Positions 6,301 through 21,759 of a DNA stretch of 64,000 bases are shown here, piece after piece (position 1 is the stretch's first letter; each line of letters starts with the position of its first letter). The DNA is from an uncultured virus (IMG/VR IMGVR_UViG_3300031758_000059) (Duplodnaviria > Heunggongvirae > Uroviricota > Caudoviricetes > Crassvirales): IMG/VR virus record IMGVR_UViG_3300031758_000059, one strand, 5' to 3'. The translations under genes were made by a program, and so were the position numbers. The notes under the pieces are model-generated. The model did not search any database. It saw nothing but the letters and a program-made list of their open reading frames with translations, and had not been told where the DNA came from.

Positions 6301-8816
6301 GTGTTTACGTTAATAATCTGACCAATGTTTACAATAAATCCTTCCTGATTGGTTGATATATCCTCGCATACCAATCCAAGTGTAGATGCACTATTAGCGT
6401 CATTGTTAGCCTGCGCCAACGAAACAGCAAGTCTTTGTCCCTGCGCTCCCGCAACTCTTACAGCTTGATAAGCTGTTCTTGATAGATTACCTCCTGTGCT
6501 ATTGCGCACTCTTGCTACAACACTTTCTCCAATTGGAAGGTTGTAAGTGTTTCCTTTCAAAGATAGCCTAATCGTACCCTCAGTGTTATCCCACCACATT
6601 ACTCCTTCAGCAGAAGGAATGTTACTACTTGAAGGATTAAATCTAACAAAGTCAGAAATCAGTCCATACGTACCAAGGTTAACATCTTGTGTTGCACCTG
6701 TGTACGGAACATATCCTGTAAGTACAGACCCGTAATCAGGAATATTAAGTATACCTGTTATGTTGCTATACGTTGCAGGACCGCTTGTGCCTAATGTGGT
6801 CAAACTAATAGCCGCACGTGAACGTGCGTCTGTAAAATATAAATTAGTGCCCTCGGTAACAAGGGTCGTTGTATAATCGCCCGACTGAGCTATAATCGCC
6901 CCTGTCCTTCCGAACACACTTGTCACCGGGGCAGTATCGTAATCCGTCCATGAAGCAGTGATGGTCCCACCATCCTGCTGATTCATGGTTAATGTCTTTG
7001 TTGTTGTACCTGTAACTGTAGCAGATACAATCATATTGTTGTAAGCACTATCCCAAGTCGCTTGACTTACGTTTGTTGGAAGCGAATACCCCGCAGCAAA
7101 CGATACAGCAAGCGTGCCTGCTCCTGTAACAGGGTTGCCACTTATTGCAAACCCAACAGGAACGCTCATATCTACCGATGTAACGGTGCCTACAGACCAT
7201 GACCTGTCTGCGGACAAGTCGTAGGAGGTGCCGTTAATAGTTAATTGACGTGTTGTGGGGACACCGCCAATGTCACTTAACACCTCACTACCTGTCCTAT
7301 ACTTAATAACCCCTGAGTCAGATACTAAAAACTTATCTGTGTCAGTGGCTGCATTTGCAATGGTCTCAATGTAAAGGTTACCCTCAATACTAAGCTTATA
7401 CCCACTATCAGTAGTGCTATCACCAAGTATCATATTGCCATTGGCAAATAGTCTTGACACCTGTACACCACCAATATACTCAACAACGTTGCCATCAGTA
7501 TACGTATGGAACGTAGTTCTCGTGACATTATTCATCACGATAGAGTACGTATACGTAGTAGTAGCTGTATTGATAAAGCTTACTGTAGCTCCGGCTGCAT
7601 TATTGTAATTAAAGTCAACAACGCCTGTACCGTGAGAGATAATACTATCTCCAAGAGTAGTGAGTCCCGTCCACATCGGCACGTAATACGTAGTACCCGT
7701 ACCGGTAACAGGGTTAGTAAGCGCGTTTTGCTTGTTGTTAAATGTATTCCAATCAGTAGAGCTCAGATATCCATCTGAACTTACACCCGACTGCGTAATT
7801 CCTATCGTCCCTGTAGTTGTTATAGGTCCACCTGTAAGCGGTCCGGTAGTATCTATCTGCGTAATCGTACCCACGCTCCAACTCCTATCAGCAGATAGGT
7901 CATAGGCTGTCCCATTAATAGTCAATTGACGGGTTGATGGTACACCACCAAGCCCACTTAACGTATAATTAGGGATATTAAACTCACCCGACTCGTCATT
8001 ATAGGTAGCAGCCCCACTATTTCCCGTAGTTGTCAGGCTAAGCGCTGCCCAAACACGCTCGTCAGTGTAATAAAGGTTTGTACCCTCTGCAATATCAGTA
8101 GTAGTTAGTACAACAACCCCTACTTTTCCATTTACCGATACAACCGTATCAGTATTATCAACCTGTTGCCACGCTGTTCCGTCAAAAATCGCCCAATCCC
8201 CCACATTCCAATCGGTAATACCATCCAAATTGGTGCTACCCGCTACACTTACGACATAATAATAGCCTTTTTGACCTACTCCACTTTGTAAAGTGGGCGT
8301 ATTTGTAGCCGCATTCCACGTTCCTTGGTACTGAACACCACCAACAAGGCTATTAATTTGGTTTTGAACCTTACCAAACGCCTGTAAAATGGTGTCAGTG
8401 TCATTAACAGAGCCCCCTGTGATGGTAAGACCCGTCAAAACTTTGCCAATAACAGCACCATTGCTCAGCACAACAGTCGCTACACCGGGCCCTGAAGCCG
8501 TAGCCTCACCACTAAGCCCTGTAATGTAGTTGCCCGCAGGCTGATAGACCGTTGAATCAAGGCTGCCGTCAGCTTTTACGAACTGAGTAGACAGTCCACC
8601 CGGTACAATAAAGGCTGATGCCGTTATACTGAATAAACCTAAGTCAACATTTTTAGTAGCACCTACATAGGGGACGTAGTTATCTGCTATAATGAGGTCA
8701 GTAATATCCCCAATGGAGAAATTTTTCGTCTCATTAAGATTCTCCACATCAGTACCAATCAACAAATCGTTGAAAGTAGGTACAGATATTAAAGGATATG
8801 TACTTATCCGTGCCAT
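3321..8816 (-). CDS. Tail fibre / fibre-like structural protein, 1831 aa
   Basis: Thr/Gly/Ser-rich, with many internal repeats (RxLTINGTxYDLSAxRxWSVGTVTS, GYLSSTDWNTFNNKQ, YQGTWNAxTNTP). Confidence 0.8.
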   Translation of the reverse strand: MARISTYPLISVPTFNDLLIGTDVENLNETKNFSIGDITDLIIADNYVPYVGATKNVDLGLFSITASAFIVPGGLSTQFVKADGSLDSTVYQPAGNYITGLSGEATASGPGVATVVLSNGAVIGKVLTGLTITGGSVNDTDTILQAFGKVQNQINSLVGGVQYQGTWNAATNTPTLQSGVGQKGYYYVVSVAGSTNLDGITDWNVGDWAIFDGTAWQQVDNTDTVVSVNGKVGVVVLTTTDIAEGTNLYYTDERVWAALSLTTTGNSGAATYNDESGEFNIPNYTLSGLGGVPSTRQLTINGTAYDLSADRSWSVGTITQIDTTGPLTGGPITTTGTIGITQSGVSSDGYLSSTDWNTFNNKQNALTNPVTGTGTTYYVPMWTGLTTLGDSIISHGTGVVDFNYNNAAGATVSFINTATTTYTYSIVMNNVTRTTFHTYTDGNVVEYIGGVQVSRLFANGNMILGDSTTDSGYKLSIEGNLYIETIANAATDTDKFLVSDSGVIKYRTGSEVLSDIGGVPTTRQLTINGTSYDLSADRSWSVGTVTSVDMSVPVGFAISGNPVTGAGTLAVSFAAGYSLPTNVSQATWDSAYNNMIVSATVTGTTTKTLTMNQQDGGTITASWTDYDTAPVTSVFGRTGAIIAQSGDYTTTLVTEGTNLYFTDARSRAAISLTTLGTSGPATYSNITGILNIPDYGSVLTGYVPYTGATQDVNLGTYGLISDFVRFNPSSSNIPSAEGVMWWDNTEGTIRLSLKGNTYNLPIGESVVARVRNSTGGNLSRTAYQAVRVAGAQGQRLAVSLAQANNDANSASTLGLVCEDISTNQEGFIVNIGQIINVNTTGNLQGETWSDGDVLYLSPTTPGAITNIKPAAPQHTVIVGYVEYSNANNGKIYVKVDNGYELEELHDVAPTPYINNGVLYRDTTVNLWKSATIATLLGYTPANQAITLTINGTTYDLSANRTWNVGTVTSITAGSGLSGGTITTSGTISHADTSSQTSVDNAGGTVIQDVTLDTFGHVTGLASVDLDLRYVPLTRTLNGLALSSNQTFATGTTGTDFNIVSAGTVHTFNIPDASASARGFVNATTQTIGGAKTFANSVTAPAYYLTNMGAGSGALYYNTAETRVTLANYNVGGKIMFEVNGGNYTMSLNSDLSIQLIGYTTNGILKTSGSNGTLIVDTTAYTPQSRTLTINGTTYDLSANRTWSVGTVTSVDMTVPTGFAIGGNPVTSSGTLALTFASGYSLPTNAVQAEWDEAYDNRITSLTTTGTSGAATLVSNVLNIPQYQAQGNYITSLTGEATASGPGAASVTLSNSAVTGKVLTGLTVTGTAISATDSILSALGKLQGQVNDLIGGLQYQGTWNASTNTPTITSGVGTDGYFYIVSVAGNTTIDGISGWQVGDWIVFHGSAWQKVDNTESVTSVNGFTGAVVLTTSNISEGTNLYFTDSRARQAISLTTTGNSGAATYSNLTGVLNVPQYSLAGLGGVPDTRQLTINGTAYDLTANRSWSVGTVTSIATTGPITGGTITGSGTIGITQATTSSNGYLSSTDWNTFNNKQNAITLTTTGNSGASTLVGATLNVPNYTLSGLGGVPDTRTLTINGTSYDLSVNRTWSVGTVTSITFSGPLTGGTITGSGTVGILQASGSQNGYLSSTDWTTFNNKQNTISVTAPITLVGTTIAITQAGASSNGYLSSTDWNTFNNKQAAITLTTTGTSGAATLVGATLNIPIYQSVLTNPVTGTGTTNYLSKFTGTSAIGDSLLYDSGSAIGLGTSTINAAALFEMSSTTKGFLPPRMTQAQRTAISTPPEGLIVYQTNSVIGLYIYANGTWRSLTMV

Positions 8817-13056: not shown

Positions 13057-13234
13057 CGCTTCTGTTTATCTCAGTCCAATGCCCACACTTAGGGCACTCT
13101 AATAAGTCACCGTGATATAGTTCCACGTGGAACTCCGTCCACTCAATCTTACTCGCCTCAACCAAAGCAAGCCATTGGTAGTTGCATCTCGCACACTCCA
13201 TAGGATATGCTATGTTCTCTTGGCCTACGGTCAT
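13049..13234 (-). CDS. Small zinc-ribbon protein
   Basis: CARC...CPKC; coupled to the groEL stop by an ATGA overlap. Confidence 0.55.
   Translation of the reverse strand: MTVGQENIAYPMECARCNYQWLALVEASKIEWTEFHVELYHGDLLECPKCGHWTEINRSDV
13119..13134. promoter_or_regulatory. parS-like palindrome
   Basis: AGTTCCACGTGGAACT, a perfect 16-bp palindrome with the parS core GTTCCACGTGGAAC. Confidence 0.55.
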
Positions 13235-14829
13235 TTGGTCTCGTATGAGCGTGCCATGGTGATAATGGCGTTAGTGGATAAAATGGTTGTTGCTACGCTC
13301 ACTGCATTCTGCAAAGCTGAACGAGTGACTTTCAGTGGGTCAATCACCCCCATTTTAATCAGGTCGCCCATCTCGCGGGTCTTGACGTTTAAGCCGAACC
13401 CATCGGACACGTCCGATGTATAGTGGTCCTCCGCTTTTAACCCCGCATTGTCAAGTATCTGCTCAAGAGGCGCTTTGAGCGCGCTCTGCAGTATCTGCGC
13501 TGCAACGTCCTGCTCCTCTTGGGTGACCTCACCCAAAAGGTCGAACACCTCAACTTCGTACAGCGCCTTGCCCCCACCGGGCAGTATCCCTTCCTCAAGC
13601 GCTGAGCGAACGGCATGCACCGCATCGTCAACCCTGTCATATAGCTCCTTCTGCTCAAGGTCAGTGTTTCCACCTACATAGATAACCCCAATACCCCCCG
13701 TAAGCGAAGCAATGCGCTCAAGCAAGTGGTCACGGTCAGCCTTTTTCTTGGCAACCCTGTGCGCCTCCCAAAGCTGCGCCACCCTCGTCTCCACCTTCTC
13801 TTGGTCGACCTTCAGCTCACTTTTTAAAATGATAGTGGTATCCTTTGACACCACAACCTTCGCGGCATGTCCCAAATCGGCATAACTTATCTGCGATAAG
13901 TCGTCACCGGTCTTCTCGGAAAAGTAAATGGCTCCTACTGACACGGCAAGGTCTTGCATCAGCTCATGCTGCTTATACCCAAAGCTCGGAGGCTGCACCG
14001 CACAAAGCTTGAGATTGTTCTTCATCACATTCGCGGCAAAGGTATTGACCACGTTCACGTGGCAGGGAGCCACAATCAGCAGCTTCTTGCCCTCTTGGAT
14101 AATTGGTTTCAAAACAGCTTCTATCTGCAGGATATTGCTTATCTCAATGTCAGCTACCAAAATGTATACGTCCTCAAAGACGCATTCGTCCCTTCCTTGG
14201 TCGTTTATAAAAAGTGGGCTGTAGTACCCTCTGTCGATTTTTAGGCCCTTGGTGGTCTCCGCATAGGTCTCAGCGGTCTGTGACCGCTCTACGGTCACAA
14301 TCCCCTGTCGGCCCACGTCCTTATACACCTCGGCAATTATCTTCCCAATCTCGCGGTCGTTGTTGGCTGAAATAGAGGCAATGTCAACAAGCATACTGCT
14401 TGAGACCTTCTTGCTGCGCCTGCGCAGCCTATCCACCACCTTTGTGGACAAGTCCACCATATTGCGTAGCACCTCCGTCCGGTTATGGTGTGGCTTCATC
14501 AGGTTAAGACCACCAAGTACGAGCGCCTCAGTAAGTACGATAGCTGTCGTAGTTCCGTCCCCCGCAAGGGTGGCCGTCCGGTCTGCTGCCTCCTTCATCA
14601 TCTTAACCGCCAAGTTCTCGACAGGGTCCAACAAGTCAACCGCCTTAGCCACCGTAACCCCATCCTTCGTAACCGTAATACCATGCGTGTGCTGAGGAGA
14701 CTCAATAAGCACCGTGTTACCACTCGGCCCCAACGTGCTTTTAACCGCTTGTGCCATCTTTTCAATGCCACTAATAAGCTTCTGCCGACCCTGTTCGGCA
14801 AAGACTAAGTCTTTAGGAGAATATTCCAT
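13231..14829 (-). CDS. groEL: Chaperonin GroEL (Cpn60)
   Basis: AVKSTLGPSG, VTKDGVTVAK, AGDGTTTAIVL, DRVDDA, EEGILPGGG and GVIDPLKVTRSALQNA; no C-terminal GGM tail. Confidence 0.97.
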   Translation of the reverse strand: MEYSPKDLVFAEQGRQKLISGIEKMAQAVKSTLGPSGNTVLIESPQHTHGITVTKDGVTVAKAVDLLDPVENLAVKMMKEAADRTATLAGDGTTTAIVLTEALVLGGLNLMKPHHNRTEVLRNMVDLSTKVVDRLRRRSKKVSSSMLVDIASISANNDREIGKIIAEVYKDVGRQGIVTVERSQTAETYAETTKGLKIDRGYYSPLFINDQGRDECVFEDVYILVADIEISNILQIEAVLKPIIQEGKKLLIVAPCHVNVVNTFAANVMKNNLKLCAVQPPSFGYKQHELMQDLAVSVGAIYFSEKTGDDLSQISYADLGHAAKVVVSKDTTIILKSELKVDQEKVETRVAQLWEAHRVAKKKADRDHLLERIASLTGGIGVIYVGGNTDLEQKELYDRVDDAVHAVRSALEEGILPGGGKALYEVEVFDLLGEVTQEEQDVAAQILQSALKAPLEQILDNAGLKAEDHYTSDVSDGFGLNVKTREMGDLIKMGVIDPLKVTRSALQNAVSVATTILSTNAIITMARSYETK

Positions 14830-14925: not shown

Positions 14926-15101
14926 ATTTCGATAGTGAGCTATCGAAATGACAAGTTCTTCCTTCCCTATTATATATATATATTTACCTCCTTTTATATA
15001 GAATTTTATGGTTATAGTTCATTTTTAAAATCGACATAATCGACATAAATAATAATAATCAATAAGTTAAGTAACATAAAATCTGTCATTGAATGACAGA
15101 T
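14926..15101. repeat. AT-rich origin-like element, copy A
   Basis: Inverted repeats at 14926-14949 and 15081-15101 flank a (TA)n tract and tandem TCGACATAA; related to 24030-24186. Confidence 0.5.
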
Positions 15102-15114
15102 TATCAGGTAATAT

Positions 15115-15156
15115 AAAAAGAAGAAGGGAGAAACCACAACCGTGACCTCTCCCTTC
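15115..15156 (-). terminator. Probable intrinsic terminator
   Basis: GAAGGGAG...CTCCCTTC stem followed by a U-rich tract on the minus strand, downstream of ORF 15183-15380. Confidence 0.5.
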
Positions 15157-15182
15157 ATTAAGTAAGCTTGTACAATCCTCGT

Positions 15183-15380
15183 CTATTTCTTCTTGAGCTC
15201 CATTAAAGACTCCATCATATCAGCACGCATCTCCGCCTGATACATGGCCTCTGACATCATAGAAATCTTCTCAGCTTTCTTCATCTCTTTCTTGATACGA
15301 ACAGCCTGTTGGATTCCCGTAACATCATTAGGACGATTGTTGATAAGCCTACCGTTCCGAACTGTTAAATCATTGTACAT
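15183..15380 (-). CDS. Hypothetical protein
   Basis: 65-aa ORF with a helical K/E/M-rich C-terminus, followed by a terminator-like hairpin. Confidence 0.55.
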   Translation of the reverse strand: MYNDLTVRNGRLINNRPNDVTGIQQAVRIKKEMKKAEKISMMSEAMYQAEMRADMMESLMELKKK

Positions 15381-15687
15381 AGCATAAAGATACGTACTTG
15401 TGTCGACAACTTAAAACAACTAAGGGTGACACAATACCGGAAACTTTAGATAACCGGAGTGTGGGGGTTATACCCCGGTTTTGCGCGGCCCGCCCCGAAC
15501 CCGAAACGACTTTTATTTTAGGGGGTGGGGGTCGAGTTCCCTTCGGTTCACTCAGATTTTTTAGCTTTTTCCCTGCACCCCTTGCGCCCCTCGCCCGCTC
15601 CCCGCATCCGCGCCCCGCTCGCCCCCCTGCACCTTGCGCGCTTTTACGTTTGACGCGCCCCTTTGTCATCCTTCGCCCGCCCGCCCT

Positions 15688-15703
15688 GTGTCTTCAAAGA
15701 CAC
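15688..15703. repeat. Dispersed palindrome GTGTCTTNNAAGACAC (one of 8 copies)
   Basis: Copies start at 11066 (1 mismatch), 15688, 17404, 19101, 27751, 36558, 50220 and 57288. Confidence 0.9.
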
Positions 15704-15908
15704 AAAGAGAGACCCAAAGAGAGGGGGTAACCCTCCCGCCCCTGTTTGAATTAGTAAATAGTTAGACGAGCAATAAACGGCTAAAATGCTGTGTTTGTGC
15801 ACACATTGTACACACTAAAAAAAATTCTTTAAAAAAACTTTTTTTGTGTCGTGAATTGTTGTAATATTGTTGCGGAATTGTTTTTTAATTATTCAAAATT
15901 TAATCAAA

Positions 15909-16484
15909 ATGAGTTTACTTACCATTGAGCGCAACTTTTTAAAACTACCTGAGGTAGCCACAGCGCTTCGCCTCTCTGAGGTGCGCACGATACAGCGCAC
16001 GATTGCAAACGCCAAAAAGAAAAAGTTCGAGCAGTCGCTCGCCCTGTCTCAGCACGTTCAATCCGCTTTCGAGTGGTTTAAAAGTGAAGACGGACGCGCG
16101 AAGTTCAGCGAAGAGGGTATCGTGTGGACGGCTGAGGACTTTGGGTTGAAGGTCTTCGGATGGCAAAGGTCATTTTTCTACAAAATGCTTCGGGTGGCTT
16201 CGCTACCTTCTGAGGTGGTCGAGCGCTACAGCGCGCAGGCTGACGAGCAGGGCGAGGACGCACAGCGGAGCATTGAGGAGTTATTGAGCTACGCGAAGCA
16301 GGTGGAAGAGGGGAGCGAAGAAGGTGGAACAGGGGAGCGCCCGCAAATTATCCTTTCTCTTGTCTTCAATCATCCTGACGGCAAGACTACCATAAAAATC
16401 AACGATGCGGGGCAGGTCAAAATTTCGGGCGAGAATATTCGCGAAGCTATCCAATTGTTAACCTCTTCAATCAATTTACAATGA
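15909..16484 (+). CDS. Hypothetical early protein, possibly DNA-binding
   Basis: First gene of the plus arm; AATCAAA leader before the ATG at 15909; the WTAEDFGLKVFGWQRSFFYKMLRVA segment resembles an HTH. Confidence 0.6.
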   Translation: MSLLTIERNFLKLPEVATALRLSEVRTIQRTIANAKKKKFEQSLALSQHVQSAFEWFKSEDGRAKFSEEGIVWTAEDFGLKVFGWQRSFFYKMLRVASLPSEVVERYSAQADEQGEDAQRSIEELLSYAKQVEEGSEEGGTGERPQIILSLVFNHPDGKTTIKINDAGQVKISGENIREAIQLLTSSINLQ

Positions 16485-17401
16485 GTCAGGGCATTATATA
16501 CGGCTTGCATGGTGCAGGCGAAAACAGATGGGGCAATTTAGTGTCACGCGGTCAGGTACAGCCGTATCACGACAAACCGCATCCCCTCAACATTTCAAAG
16601 GGCGGGCACGCGGTTGACATTGCGGGGCTTAAAAAGAAGGTGACAAGGGATACCATCCTTCTTGAGAATGGCGAATATGGCGCGCGCTTTACGATAGGCT
16701 TTGAGATTGAAAAAAACGCCCTACACAGAAACGCGGTGCAGGAATACCCCCTGCTTTGTGGCTTCGAGCGTGACGGGTCGTGTGGATATGAGGCGGTGAC
16801 GCACATTTTGCCCCTGCTCCCTGCGAGTAAGTGGCGAAATAAAGTGTTTGACATGTTCGTACAGGCTGAGAAGATTATCGATGACAGGTTCAGTCCGTCC
16901 GATAAGCGGTGCGGTGGGCACGTTACAATCGCGGTGCAGGGGATGAGCGGGGACGAGCTACGCGAAGCCATCCGCAAAAATTGTGGCATCCTTTACGCCC
17001 TATTTCGCAAGCGTTTGACCAATGGCTTTTGCTCGAGAAATAGACGGATGCAAACAGAGAGTGAGGTGCATTTGGGGCAATATAGCGAGACAGGCGGGTG
17101 GCATGAAAAATATCAGGTTGCGCTCGTCAAAGACAAGTGTCTTGAGTTTCGCCTGCCTTCAAAGGTTGAGAGTGTAAAACAGCTCCTGAGACGCTATGAG
17201 CTACTTTTTGAGATGGTGAACTTCACCATCAATTGCCCCAACGGCTCGCACGAGGCGCTTCTCAAGCGCGTGCGCCCAATTGTCAAAAGCATGTACAATG
17301 GGGACGATGCGAAAACGGACGGCATCCTTGAGCTCGCGCGCCACTTCCGCAAGTTCATTCTAACGGGTGAACGGCATGGGGACATCGTGCGCTATCTGTG
17401 A
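16481..17401 (+). CDS. Putative amidoligase (COOH-NH2 ligase type 2)
   Basis: TIGFEIE, RDGSCGYEAVT, CGGHVTI and LEFRLP motifs. Confidence 0.8.
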   Translation: MSQGIIYGLHGAGENRWGNLVSRGQVQPYHDKPHPLNISKGGHAVDIAGLKKKVTRDTILLENGEYGARFTIGFEIEKNALHRNAVQEYPLLCGFERDGSCGYEAVTHILPLLPASKWRNKVFDMFVQAEKIIDDRFSPSDKRCGGHVTIAVQGMSGDELREAIRKNCGILYALFRKRLTNGFCSRNRRMQTESEVHLGQYSETGGWHEKYQVALVKDKCLEFRLPSKVESVKQLLRRYELLFEMVNFTINCPNGSHEALLKRVRPIVKSMYNGDDAKTDGILELARHFRKFILTGERHGDIVRYL

Positions 17402-17421: not shown

Positions 17422-17480
17422 GCCTGTGACGGCTTACTCAGGGCATGCCCTGAGGCAAGGGTTCGACTCCCTCGACAGGC
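17422..17480 (+). ncRNA. tRNA-like element (acceptor-like stem, hairpin, T-arm; no D-arm)
   Basis: GCCTGT/ACAGGC closing stem, CTCAGGGCATGCCCTGAG hairpin, AGGG-TTCGACT-CCCT T-loop. Confidence 0.55.
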
Positions 17481-17501
17481 TCGAATTAAAATCAAATCAA
17501 A

Positions 17502-17612
17502 ATGGGAACACACATTACAATTTTGGAGGCGGTCGCGCTTAGCGCGGTGAGTCTCTTCGCTTATGTCTTTATTGCAACCTTATTCGATTACCTTAAAAAC
17601 CCAAACAAATGA
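17502..17612 (+). CDS. Small single-TM protein, 36 aa (absent from the ORF track)
   Basis: MGTHITILEAVALSAVSLFAYVFIATLFDYLKNPNK; AAATCAAATCAAA leader; ATGA overlap with the next gene. Confidence 0.65.
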   Translation: MGTHITILEAVALSAVSLFAYVFIATLFDYLKNPNK

Positions 17613-18151
17613 GACGCATTACTGAGATGATGGCGTGCGCCTTCGAGAGAGGGCGTCAGCTACGGATGAGCAACAGCTACACAGACGGCACGTCCCTGTG
17701 GCTACATGGCAACAAAATCGCGGAGGACAGAGGCGGTGAGCTATGGATAACGAGTGCGGGGTGGCGAACAAACGTAACAAAGGAGAGGCTTAACGGGCTG
17801 ACGGGTGTAAATATCCAACAGCGCAGGGGCACGTGGTATCTAAACGGACAGCAGTGGGACGGGGAGTGGACGAGGGTGGACGGATACGAGTGGCAGGCTG
17901 TGCCTCAAGAACCTGAGTTTGACATGACGAGCGAGTGGACGGGTAAGTACAGCCGTCCATTGTATGCCATCTTACACACGCATGACGCGGACGAGTTGTG
18001 CGGGGTGGAGAAAATACTCAATGAAGAAGGTATACCGCACCGCAGGCACGAGACTGACACGACAGGAGAGTGGAGACCAAATCACTTTGTGGTGGTGCTC
18101 CCTGCGGACTACGAGCGGGCAAAGAGGTTAACTGAAGAGGCTTATGCTTAG
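17609..18151 (+). CDS. Hypothetical early protein; its 3' end lies inside hammerhead 1
   Basis: 180-aa Trp-rich ORF (LWLHGNKIA...GWRTNVTKERLN). Confidence 0.75.
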   Translation: MRRITEMMACAFERGRQLRMSNSYTDGTSLWLHGNKIAEDRGGELWITSAGWRTNVTKERLNGLTGVNIQQRRGTWYLNGQQWDGEWTRVDGYEWQAVPQEPEFDMTSEWTGKYSRPLYAILHTHDADELCGVEKILNEEGIPHRRHETDTTGEWRPNHFVVVLPADYERAKRLTEEAYA

Positions 18152-18193
18152 CCGAAACGTGAGCGAGTGAATCGAGCTCGCCACGTCTTAACC
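18126..18193 (+). ncRNA. Hammerhead ribozyme 1 (type I)
   Basis: Stem I GGUUAA/UUAACC, core CUGAAGA, stem II GGCU/AGCC, GAAA, stem III ACGUG..GCGAG/CUCGC..CACGU, GUC triplet; predicted cut after 18187. Confidence 0.93.
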
Positions 18194-18206
18194 AAATCAA
18201 AGTAAA

Positions 18207-18407
18207 ATGATAATCAGAAACGGATTCGTATGGTTGGCGGTGACCAACAAAGCAAAAGAGGTTTTCCAAAGCGGGCTATTTGAGGTTTACAAATTGCATG
18301 ATGATGAAAGTGAAAGCCTGTGTGAAAGCTATGCAGACATAAATGATGCGCTTGAGTTTGGGCTTGATTTAGCTATCGAGGTAGGTAGGTTAACTGATGA
18401 GGGTTAA
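18207..18407 (+). CDS. Hypothetical 66-aa protein bracketed by two hammerheads
   Basis: Starts 19 nt after the HHR1 cut site; stop codon lies in loop II of HHR2. Confidence 0.75.
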   Translation: MIIRNGFVWLAVTNKAKEVFQSGLFEVYKLHDDESESLCESYADINDALEFGLDLAIEVGRLTDEG

Positions 18408-18459
18408 ATTACCCGAAACGGAATCACACGGGCTCGCCCGTGTGACCCCCGTCTTAACC
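18388..18459 (+). ncRNA. Hammerhead ribozyme 2 (type I)
   Basis: Stem I GGUUAA/UUAACC, core CUGAUGA, stem II GGGU/ACCC, GAAA, stem III ACGG..UCACACGGGC/GCCCGUGUGA..CCGU, GUC triplet; predicted cut after 18453. Confidence 0.95.
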
Positions 18460-18473
18460 AAATCAAATCAAAT

Positions 18474-18704
18474 ATGATACTACACGAAAGAGACCACAAA
18501 GCAATCGCAAAAGCGAAGGAGCTACTAAAAAACTACGGGTACTTTACGGACAATCTTTGGCACGTTAATGACGTGATGAATAGGTTTGAATGTGACGAAG
18601 ATACCGCGCAAAGTATACTAAACGATGCCCTCACAAATGACGCAACCTTTGAGCAAGTTTGGCTTGCTATTGACTGCGCTATTCAATCACATGTAAATCT
18701 GTAA
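18474..18704 (+). CDS. Hypothetical early protein
   Basis: 76-aa ORF starting 20 nt after the HHR2 cut site, with an AAATCAAATCAAAT leader. Confidence 0.7.
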   Translation: MILHERDHKAIAKAKELLKNYGYFTDNLWHVNDVMNRFECDEDTAQSILNDALTNDATFEQVWLAIDCAIQSHVNL

Positions 18705-18899: not shown

Positions 18900-19035
18900 A
18901 GTTTACTACGGGCTTGAGTTTGTCAAGCTCGTGACTGCCCGCTCAAGGTGGGAGGCGGTCGAGCTTGTGTATAGCAGGCTCGTCCTTGACTATCCCGAAC
19001 TTATTCGGAGCAAAATAAGGGTTAAAAAAGTTTGA
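18847..19035 (+). CDS. Hypothetical protein (true start possibly the internal MEREY)
   Basis: Fills the gap up to the next promoter. Confidence 0.5.
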   Translation: MAKTSSKPKAMEREYLFKVYYGLEFVKLVTARSRWEAVELVYSRLVLDYPELIRSKIRVKKV

Positions 19036-19061
19036 TATGTTCAAATTTTGTCGTATCTTTG
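19031..19061 (+). promoter_or_regulatory. Bacteroidota sigma70-type promoter
   Basis: TTTG (19031-19034), 19-nt spacer, TATCTTTG (19054-19061). Confidence 0.8.
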
Positions 19062-19144: not shown

Positions 19145-20218
19145 ATGTGTGTAATCATTGTCAAACAAAAGGGCAAGCGACTGCCCCATGATGTCGCAAA
19201 AACTTCAGCGCGCCTCAATCCCCACGGACTTGGCGTGATGTGGATGGACACATTCGAGGTCACTTATCATAAGTCGAGTGAGCACAAGGTGCTACTCAGC
19301 GACCGCCCCTACATTGCCCACTTCAGATACGCCACTGTGGGCGCAATCAACAAAGAGAACACTCACCCCTTCACCTGTGGGAGCAACAGCAATGAGTGGC
19401 TAATGATGAACGGGACAATCTTCGGGCTTGGTGACAAGACCAAAAGCGATAGCAGGGTACTTGCCGAAATGCTTGGCGAGATACCGCGCAATGAGTGGCG
19501 CGATGAGCTATCCAAATATCCCTGCCGTTTTGTGACCATCAACACCCGCAACAAGTCATACCAAATGTACAACAAGCACCTGTGGACACAGCGCGATGGG
19601 ATATGGTACAGCAAAGGCAATGTACTTGAGAGTAATGTGGTGGCTGTCTACGGCACGCTAAAGCGTGGCTATGGCAATCACAGAGCATACCTTGAGGACA
19701 GCAAGTTCATGGGTAAGGGTAAGACAAAAGACAAGTACCCACTCTTAATTGACGGACTGCCATACCTTGTCAACAGACGGGGGAAAGGGCACAATGTAGA
19801 GGTGGAATTGTACAAGGTAGACGATGACACCCTGCGAAGACTTGACGCGCTCGAAGGGCATCCAAATTGGTATGAGCGCAAACAGATACCAATCAGGCTA
19901 AGCGGTGGCGTTGAGGTCACCGCGTGGATATACTTCAACGATATGCCTATTGAGGGTAGAGTCTATCACAAATCATACACGCAACAGGTAACGCGCAAGC
20001 CCTATACCTACACGCCCATGCCATCACCTGTCGATGACTGCCTGATGAATAGATACGATGATGCGGACGAGTTCAGCATTGAGGGGGAGCTACCTGTTTG
20101 CGTCAACTGCTTCCATGACCTTGAGCATGACTTTTTCAATAACTACTACTGCCAATCGTGCAATGAGTGGTTTAACGAAAAAGAAATAGTTAAATTCGGT
20201 AACCTAAAAAGCATCTAA
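19145..20218 (+). CDS. Class II (Ntn) glutamine amidotransferase fused to a gamma-glutamylcyclotransferase (AIG2-like) domain and a C-terminal Cys4 ribbon
   Basis: MC start, NPHGLG, HFRYATVG, NTHPF, MNGTI, SDS; then VAVYGTLKRG and LDALEG..WYER; then CVNC...CQSC. Confidence 0.85.
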   Translation: MCVIIVKQKGKRLPHDVAKTSARLNPHGLGVMWMDTFEVTYHKSSEHKVLLSDRPYIAHFRYATVGAINKENTHPFTCGSNSNEWLMMNGTIFGLGDKTKSDSRVLAEMLGEIPRNEWRDELSKYPCRFVTINTRNKSYQMYNKHLWTQRDGIWYSKGNVLESNVVAVYGTLKRGYGNHRAYLEDSKFMGKGKTKDKYPLLIDGLPYLVNRRGKGHNVEVELYKVDDDTLRRLDALEGHPNWYERKQIPIRLSGGVEVTAWIYFNDMPIEGRVYHKSYTQQVTRKPYTYTPMPSPVDDCLMNRYDDADEFSIEGELPVCVNCFHDLEHDFFNNYYCQSCNEWFNEKEIVKFGNLKSI

Positions 20219-21420: not shown

Positions 21421-21738
21421 ATGGCAAAAATTTTCAAAGCATTAGACGGGATGCTGTATATGAACGTCACACCGCACGCCTATGAGCTGTGGCGCGGTAA
21501 GACGCTTGACCTGTTCGTTGTGTGGGAGAAGGGTGCAACCGTATACAAGCTACCCATCTTGGAAGAGGTCGAGCTAACCTACGCACTAACACAGGAGGGT
21601 AAGCACATCTGTATTGAAATCGGTTCAGCCGAACAGCTTTCAGACCTACTCAAAATCAAATCATTCAAATGGGAGAAGGCTGACACCATCACACACGAAG
21701 GGTTTTTATATGTAAAGTATAACGACCTTTTGGATTAG
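21421..21738 (+). CDS. Hypothetical protein, apparent paralogue of 18207-18407
   Basis: Aligns by eye to the 66-aa ORF along its length. Confidence 0.65.
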   Translation: MAKIFKALDGMLYMNVTPHAYELWRGKTLDLFVVWEKGATVYKLPILEEVELTYALTQEGKHICIEIGSAEQLSDLLKIKSFKWEKADTITHEGFLYVKYNDLLD

Positions 21739-21759
21739 TCAGAAATTATTGTATCTTTG
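21729..21759 (+). promoter_or_regulatory. Bacteroidota sigma70-type promoter
   Basis: TTTG (21729-21732), 19-nt spacer, TATCTTTG (21752-21759). Confidence 0.8.

Follow-up and report, generated by a model that had tools for sequence, protein, structure and literature searches.

The window analyzed in this work comprises 64,000 of the 66,527 bases of one virus record, IMGVR_UViG_3300031758_000059, and was found to contain two intact type I hammerhead ribozyme motifs, termed HHR1 and HHR2, for which sequence, motif scan and folding agree. The pair belongs to a block of small genes on the plus strand that lies between a strand switch at about 15,000-16,000 and the replication genes, and each motif overlaps the end of one open reading frame (ORF) and is followed shortly by the start codon of the next (Table 1). 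Proteins encoded in the window matched terminase, portal, virion proteins, Sak, exonuclease, helicase and GroEL in Pfam and PHROG searches. The closest terminase records were those of an uncultured spring-water phage (79%) and of Flavobacterium elemo phages (45%), and the named hosts among the terminase records listed were Flavobacteriaceae in every case. Gene matches and terminase relatives thus point to a tailed phage of a Bacteroidota host.

Table 1. Features of the ribozyme locus; positions are those of the window, and offsets (+17, +11) are counted from the first base of the hammerhead core
Feature	Coordinates	Strand	Description and basis
tRNA-like three-way junction	17422..17482	+	ends ~20 nucleotides (nt) before ATG 17502; folding
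180-amino-acid (aa) ORF	17609..18151	+	N-terminal PF23790 / phrog_554 match; last 8 codons within HHR1
HHR1	18126..18193	+	type I; predicted cut after 18187; motif scan, folding, family covariation
HHR1 stem I	18126-18131/18188-18193		
HHR1 core	18132-18138		
HHR1 stem II	18139-18142/18150-18153		
HHR1 loop II	18143-18149		7 nt
TAG stop of 180-aa ORF	18149..18151	+	last loop II base and two stem II bases; +17
HHR1 GAAA	18154-18157		
HHR1 cleavage triplet GUC	18185-18187		
Leader 1	18188..18206	+	19 nt, left by cut 1; A at -3, -6, -12, -13; no Shine-Dalgarno (SD) motif
66-aa ORF	18207..18407	+	no assigned function; between the ribozymes; ATG 18207, 19 nt after the cut
HHR2	18388..18459	+	type I; predicted cut after 18453; motif scan, folding
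HHR2 stem I	18388-18393/18454-18459		
HHR2 core	18394-18400		
HHR2 stem II	18401-18404/18411-18414		
TAA stop of 66-aa ORF	18405..18407	+	first three loop II bases; +11
HHR2 loop II	18405-18410		6 nt
HHR2 GAAA	18415-18418		
HHR2 cleavage triplet GUC	18451-18453		
Leader 2	18454..18473	+	20 nt, left by cut 2; A at -3, -12, -13
76-aa ORF	18474..18704	+	no assigned function; ATG 20 nt after the cut; widespread in related phages, position varies

Two hammerheads at the ends of small genes

Both copies possess the complete hammerhead core (C3 U4 G5 A6 N7 G8 A9, G12 A13 A14 A15, U16 H17), and their three stems, of 6/4/4 and 6/4/3 base pairs (bp) at the junction, contain no mispair beside the core. 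The topology is that of type I in both cases, with stem I open and stems II and III closed. No further hammerhead of type I, II or III was identified in the 64 kb, and scanning both strands of the window after each of five shufflings returned 0 matches. The fold z-score is -3.2 for each of the two ribozyme regions, and the lowest-energy fold of HHR1 is the hammerhead. At the gathering score, Rfam provided no match in the window; the best weak match was that of HHR1 to RF03152 (19.9 bits vs a gathering score of 56.3, E = 3), and HHR2 was unmatched. When HHR1, one family member and one 1.8-kb array were submitted to blastn against cultured phages, short chance matches or nothing were obtained.

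The initial annotation of this stretch had proposed that both ribozymes overlap the upstream coding sequence in the same frame and that each cut is followed by the same leader and an ATG. Both observations were confirmed: the upstream ORFs end in RLTEEAYA-TAG and RLTDEG-TAA, in the same frame relative to cores that start at 18132 and 18394, and the first 14 nt of the leader are identical after both cuts. This shared leader is a composite, as 6 nt are forced by pairing to the shared stem I, the next A is invariant in the family described below, and the remainder corresponds to a general pre-ATG motif of this phage, which was found before 10 ORFs of at least 30 aa, 8 of them without a hammerhead. 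In Flavobacterium, initiation is reported to be favored by A at -3, -12 and -13 and by low structure at -20 to +20 (PMC6847099). The 66-aa ORF gave no Pfam or PHROG match; its homologues, 75% and 55% identical, occur in relatives without a type I ribozyme at the end of that gene.

The type I family and the position of the upstream stop

Related ribozymes were collected from viral contigs with two search patterns, one containing the stem I of the window (130 viral stretches of an estimated 490) and one free in stem I (133 of an estimated 1,300). In the stem-I-fixed set, from which locus L018 was left out for the spacing and tandem-unit counts, the first ATG was located 12-32 nt after the cut in 129 of 144 distinct ribozymes, with a median of 22 nt. 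Loop II was 5 nt long in 122 of the 144, and these had a U at position 1 in all 122, an A at position 3 in 111 and a U at position 5 in 110. The stem-I-free set contained 138 type I ribozymes among 142 matches; stem I was of 6 bp in 137 and varied widely in sequence, with 51 different entries in the tally for the 138 ribozymes, and it was flanked by an A on its two sides in 136 and 138 of the 138, respectively. The U-N-A-N-U loop II together with these flanking A residues suggests a putative tertiary contact between loop II and stem I. In a covariation alignment of 62 rows, including the two of the window, 99.4% of the cells were paired, compared to 27-36% in slid controls, and 11 of 14 pairs had changed on both sides; the rows were preselected by a scan demanding these stems, so that this is not a blind test.

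The genes that follow these ribozymes are not constant. An ORF of at least 25 aa starting 12-45 nt after the cut was present in 243 of 269 cases, and these 243 ORFs fall into 185 protein clusters. In tandem units, the first ORF ends up to 80 nt before the next ribozyme or inside it in 26 of 54 cases. The spacing and these units support the repeating unit of leader, ORF and hammerhead put forward in the initial annotation, and the predicted cuts and the family median are in line with messages that newly begin some 20 nt ahead of the ATG. An SD-like motif was detected in 75 of 262 leaders, and the median distance from cut to ATG was 26 nt with this motif vs 22 nt without it; the same ribozyme form seems to be fitted to hosts of different phyla, with longer SD-bearing leaders. 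In 203 of 257 cases the leader was predicted to be more accessible once cut, the median rising from 0.62 to 0.68, which is not counted as evidence as any truncation would raise it.

Full type I stems were also found in 58 of 123 pattern matches from a genome collection. A cultured phage, Flavobacterium phage vB_FspP_elemoA_7-9A (NC_055852.1), has one type I member, with its core at 17341 on the minus strand and an ATG 28 nt after the predicted cut, plus a second match to the hammerhead core. L052-L055 contain an array of at least six type I hammerheads whose conserved leaders are longer, the first ATG lying at 40-45 nt. Variants of type I, in which core and stem II are separated by one additional base or the cleavage triplet adjoins a mismatch, were observed at L130:6933 and 8352 and at L134:2450 and 2800.

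The position of the upstream stop was analyzed for 279 distinct type I ribozymes from viral contigs, of which 243 had an unambiguous upstream ORF; the 36 that were dropped had less than 150 nt upstream (5), no upstream ORF (22) or an ambiguous one (9). The stop lies within -30 to +20 of the core in 233 of the 243, the commonest offsets being -13 to +1. It is located before -8 in 83 cases, at -8 to -1 in 100, at the UGA of the core in 42 and past the core in 18, and 58 of the 100 stops at -8 to -1 are a TAA, TAG or TGA at -3 in stem I. Upstream ORFs that cross the core in the frame seen in the window are rare (16 of 243, the two of the window included). This frame is in fact depleted, as it accounts for 43 of the 243 stops against an expected third; when upstream protein clusters are weighted, which removes relatedness only partly, the count is 34 of 185 (p = 7e-6). 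The stop offset also differs inside 15 of the 24 multi-member families of upstream proteins, and a gap of about 76 nt separates the annotated upstream gene of the cultured phage NC_055852.1 from the core. The conserved phasing of stop codon and ribozyme that had been proposed from the two copies of the window is thus not found in the family.

Where ORFs do cross the core, they end soon afterward: 14 of the 16 stop at the first loop II codon, whereas 121 of the 227 other ribozymes have a stop triplet there (p = 0.008), and none of the 16 runs beyond +29. Loop II spells a stop in 67 of the 138 ribozymes of the stem-I-free set, and its position 2 is flat (T40, A36, C31, G31); since the loop starts with U-N-A, it forms a stop by itself about half of the time. 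An apparent enrichment of loop II stops in the stem-I-fixed sample (73 of 122) disappeared in the sample unbiased for stem I, in which the 67 of 138 correspond to the chance rate. Within the ribozyme, three frames are closed in 52, two in 77 and one in 9 of 138 copies, that is, at least two frames in 129 of 138. A misfolding of crossing ribozymes that would need a ribosome for its correction was considered and rejected, as predicted stem formation is alike in crossing and noncrossing ribozymes (p = 0.65 and 0.93). Loop II is better understood as a backstop that limits how far ribosomes enter than as a means of coupling. The punctuation is conserved and the loop II phase is not, a pattern that fits selection keeping ribosomes out of the 3' half of the ribozyme.

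Relatives of the locus and exchange at ribozyme edges

Via the neighboring 306-aa protein, 32 related loci were retrieved, several of which are near duplicates. Sense-strand hammerheads of type I or III were present in 18 of the 32, in differing gaps. A first impression that most relatives lack ribozymes, gained from a scan for type I alone (8 of 32), was overturned by a wider scan including type III and variants (19 of 32, one being a doubtful minus-strand call in L151). In 17 loci, a type III form is found up to 250 nt after the match to the 306-aa protein, usually behind a hairpin. For type III forms in the same gene region, the upstream stop lies 27-71 nt outside the ribozyme in 25 of 26 cases, and an ATG follows 13-27 nt after the structure in 21 of 26. 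These spacings indicate that what all versions share would be a structured, probably processed element followed by an A-rich leader of about 20 nt, and not contact with the upstream ribosome. At L135:3893 and L136:9299 and 11897, the type III form is accompanied by a second small hairpin, which places the ATG 46-47 nt after the ribozyme.

The tRNA-like junction of the window has a 6-bp acceptor-like stem, a 7-bp hairpin and a T-arm with a 7-nt T-loop. In many relatives, the corresponding gap is occupied by a type III hammerhead, and in L040 by another T-arm element. Neither ARAGORN nor Rfam called this junction, and ARAGORN detected no tRNA or tmRNA in the window. It is possible that it serves as a third punctuation mark, in which case it would also be processed. 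Similar T-arm elements precede ATGs in L046, L058, L078, L130, L138, L216 and L233. A further intergenic repeat, which folds into a closed stem enclosing one or two hairpins, is followed by a similar leader and has no hammerhead core, was observed at L130:9543-9614, L134:4332-4402 and L134:4930-4999.

Alignments of close pairs break at -7/-6 and at +58 to +84 from the cores, which corresponds to stem I and to the leader or ATG. The rearrangements, as read by eye, include an additional gene after the leader (L145 vs L150), a 406-nt insert immediately before stem I in L150, different genes behind the same ribozyme and a gene that has a hammerhead in front of it in L142 but not in L145 or L150. 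L130 contains a hybrid ribozyme, its 5' half matching one L134 ribozyme and its 3' half the next one, and the intervening 88-aa unit is missing. At the level of sequence comparison, genes have thus been gained and lost at ribozyme and leader edges in relatives, as the initial annotation had anticipated in suggesting the conserved flanks as recombination points. Between the inserted gene and the 306-aa gene of L145, at 6950-7005, a hairpin resembling stem III of the neighboring ribozyme was noted, with a leader and without a catalytic core.

As to the wider setting, scanning the window for sigma-70 promoters and terminators gave counts near the shuffle level and no promoter-like or terminator-like site at either ribozyme, and the Bacteroidota promoter pattern had 5 matches in the window vs 2.95 expected, none of them on the plus strand upstream of the small-gene block. 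Two of these five are located at 19031-19061 (+) and 21729-21759 (+), and the stretch after the former is nearly unchanged in L131, L145 and L150. At the strand switch before the block, positions 15480-15700 are noncoding, G+C-rich and pyrimidine-rich and form a possible genome end or origin. The 306-aa gene (16481-17401), without a Pfam or PHROG match, is in relatives usually found upstream of a gene for a fusion of glutamine amidotransferase-like and gamma-glutamyl cyclotransferase domains; such a fusion and a phage GroEL are encoded in the window at 19145-20218 and 13231-14829, respectively. A 16-bp palindrome occurs in 8 copies in the window vs 0.07 expected (11066, 15688, 17404, 19101, 27751, 36558, 50220 and 57288) and in up to 14 copies in relative L147. 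In relatives, it is often the hairpin that precedes a type III hammerhead, and it is a candidate protein-binding site or RNA hairpin.

Proposed mechanism and alternative explanations

We consider it rather probable that these ribozymes cut the transcript constitutively into short mRNAs with a standard leader and that their repeats also serve in gene swapping. The intact core and the three stems with family-wide covariation are the basis of this mechanism. Cleavage would occur after the GUC and leave a 5'-OH and a 2',3'-cyclic phosphate, which are the established products of hammerhead cleavage. With the cut at a median of 22 nt before the ATG, or of 26 nt where an SD-like motif is present, and the upstream stop at or inside the 5' edge of the ribozyme, as seen across the family, each downstream gene would begin on a fresh, unpaired, A-rich leader, of 19-20 nt in the window, and the upstream pieces would end in ribozyme hairpins. 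The short, 6-bp stem I may release its product readily and so clear the region around -20 that Bacteroidota ribosomes need unpaired. End chemistry and hairpins may also raise or lower the stability of each piece, and the effect of a 5'-OH end depends on host nucleases: glmS cleavage is reported to lead to mRNA decay (PMC6765202), whereas in E. coli RiboJ is reported to give about twice as much mRNA and two to ten times as much protein (PMC6206723). The ribozyme would further act as a stop for stray ribosomes, as its stops in at least two frames are mostly used at the first one available and the rare core-crossing ORFs end by loop II; passage of ribosomes through the 3' half would be selected against, with loop II as the backstop. 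The repeated motif is likely also a crossover point at which whole leader-gene units come and go, for which the breakpoints and the hybrid ribozyme of relatives speak. The same-frame overlaps of the window, finally, would have arisen when the cassette landed at a Leu codon of the upstream frame, not many codons ahead of the former stop, which preserved the length of the protein.

A number of observations weigh against this mechanism or limit it. Within the DNA retrieved, 14 of the 32 anchored relatives have no sense-strand hammerhead, so that any benefit would not be essential. The hammerhead fold of HHR2 is not the minimum but lies 2.5-4.1 kcal/mol above it, depending on the flank, and loops II of the window, with 7 and 6 nt, depart from the 5-nt U-N-A-N-U loop of the family, so that cleavage may be slower. 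The early status of the small-gene run is presumed from its position, and sigma-70 and Bacteroidota promoter scans did not reveal the promoter of this block in the window. In the stop analysis, the upstream ORF was taken as the longest ATG-started frame, without a gene caller. The exchanges at ribozyme edges amount to about five distinct events, seen in a single clade of four genomes and in one further pair, and plain leaders or gene interiors hold other breakpoints. Both sites of the window also belong to a class that comprises 14 of 241 other cases; the chance of two of two is about 0.3% if they are independent, and this double same-frame overlap therefore needs an account. The simplest one would be replacement of the final 4-8 codons by an incoming cassette, with the frame set by a short sequence match: homologues of the two upstream proteins whose genes do not end in a type I ribozyme are of about the same length, and in L136 an in-frame TTA occupies, in both genes, the place of the stem I TTA of the window. 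This account is based on this one relative and on 3-5 matching bases, and local selection for ribosome passage may have acted at the two sites of the window.

Several other explanations were weighed against constitutive cutting. In one of these, the type I hammerhead is a portable, all-in-one punctuation mark, with stops in two to three frames, a self-cut, protective hairpins and a host-matched leader, that is placed deliberately under the terminating ribosome, which would strip stem I and couple each gene to translation of the preceding one; the window would then show how deep an overlap is still tolerated, loop II providing the final stop. We regard this as unlikely. Unlikely, too, is translation-gated cleavage, in which ribosomes finishing the upstream gene melt the ribozyme, so that cutting or release of the stem I product depends on upstream translation. 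The 233 stops within -30 to +20 are near enough for the footprint of a terminating ribosome to cover stem I, both sites of the window are crossed as far as loop II, 14 of the 16 crossing ORFs stop at the first loop codon, and HHR2 has a competing hairpin that a ribosome could undo. However, the phase is not fixed, stops in the crossing frame are fewer than expected, no base is preferred at position 2 of loop II, and the offset varies in most upstream protein families. Predicted stem formation is equal in crossing and noncrossing ribozymes, nearly all type III stops are far outside the structure, and the annotated upstream gene of NC_055852.1 stops well before the core. The notion that a ribosome is sent through the core, coupling cleavage to translation, is thus unsupported. 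A mainly recombinational role, in which a short repeated motif would move from gap to gap and exchange genes, with cleavage tolerated as a by-product, is no more plausible. The patchy presence and shifting positions among relatives, the breakpoints, the hybrid ribozyme and the precedent of the PeSL cassettes of T4-like phages (PMC2839356) are in its favor, but the stems covary freely while the catalytic core stays fixed, the 51 stem I entries lower the DNA identity between copies, which is the opposite of what selection for recombination alone would produce, and the sense strand is used in all 18 anchored loci, with conserved spacing to the ATG.

It is improbable that the 266-nt piece released by both ribozymes is ligated into a circular mRNA for the 66-aa protein. 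The two stems I are identical, so that a complete ribozyme could form again where the ends of the released piece meet, as it could in 42 of 56 tandem pairs, and tandem ribozymes 186-399 nt apart have been linked to circles in other viruses (PMC13725137). Stem I cannot re-form in the other 14, that is, in 14 of the 30 pairs not fixed by the search pattern, and many ribozymes occur alone or beside type III forms. Compared with zetavirus-like or retrozyme circles, the tandem spacing of a few hundred nt is present here, but the length is no multiple of three (266 mod 3 = 2) and the ORF is not stop-free, as it ends after 66 codons. A search by Perreault et al. for circular or spliced products of their clusters revealed none (PMC3088659). 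Very improbable, finally, is that the coding overlap is a relic and that at least one of the copies is inactive or cleaves slowly in vivo. The atypical loops II agree with it, as do the HHR2 stem probabilities of 0.25 and 0.24 in context, from folding without tertiary contacts; all core positions and core-flanking pairs are nevertheless intact in both copies, and 50 of 134 other family members are also below 0.3 for stem I in the same calculation.

Clear parallels exist to known systems. Hammerhead clusters that flank single genes in phages and prophages are reported to cleave in vitro and in E. coli, with processing to single-gene mRNA proposed, and a halovirus transcript has a 5' end that maps near a hammerhead 13 nt before the start codon (PMC3088659). 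These clusters resemble the window in having several hammerheads close together around single, variable genes, here a 266-nt unit with one ORF; the ribozymes studied here differ in being compact type I forms with a 6-bp stem I flanked by two A, a mostly 5-nt loop II in relatives and bases of their own that usually supply or abut the upstream stop. HHR1 is also similar in core and stem II to the RAGATH-1-hammerhead (RF03152), with a score far under the gathering threshold. Like the RiboJ insulator, the hammerheads would remove upstream RNA and provide a uniform leader; RiboJ is engineered, placed behind a promoter and leaves a hairpin on the downstream RNA, whereas here the ribozyme body would stay on the upstream piece (PMC6206723). 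The PeSL cassettes share short repeated regulatory units and gene swapping by recombination, seen here in relatives only, but are reported to consist of a promoter and a terminator stem-loop rather than a ribozyme and a translation leader (PMC2839356), and no promoter-like or terminator-like match is present at the sites of the window. Type I hammerheads in the untranslated regions of fungal RNA viruses also self-cleave just 5' of the start codon, where they were tied experimentally to initiation; that initiation is eukaryotic and cap-independent, and matches in DNA phages were set aside in that study (PMC13725137).

Processing of an early message between genes also has a counterpart in phage T7, the polycistronic early transcript of which is cut into short mRNAs by RNase III; this requires a host enzyme, which a hammerhead would not need. 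No account of stop offsets or of the spacing from cut to ATG in phage hammerheads was found in a search by title and start of abstract, which left subscription journals mostly outside and did not cover supplements that may bear on novelty (Perreault Dataset S1 and Figures S4-S5; the RAGATH descriptions of PMC5737381); the term RAGATH is not found in the main text of PMC5737381.

Overall, HHR1 and HHR2 are real ribozymes of a known kind; the likely cutting into single-gene messages has already been described in phages, and the pair is an ordinary example. The stop-in-loop layout that first drew attention to it is rare among related phages, and control of a switch by translation is therefore improbable. 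What self-cleaving ribozymes next to phage genes are for is described in the literature as largely unknown (PMC6765202). In this context, the family survey provides measurable rules, namely, a cut about 22 nt before the ATG, an upstream stop at the 5' edge of the ribozyme, ribosomes excluded beyond loop II and genes swapped at the edges. As the type I motif is present in the cultured phage vB_FspP_elemoA_7-9A, which grows on Flavobacterium sp. BAL314, these rules are accessible to end mapping and mutant tests.

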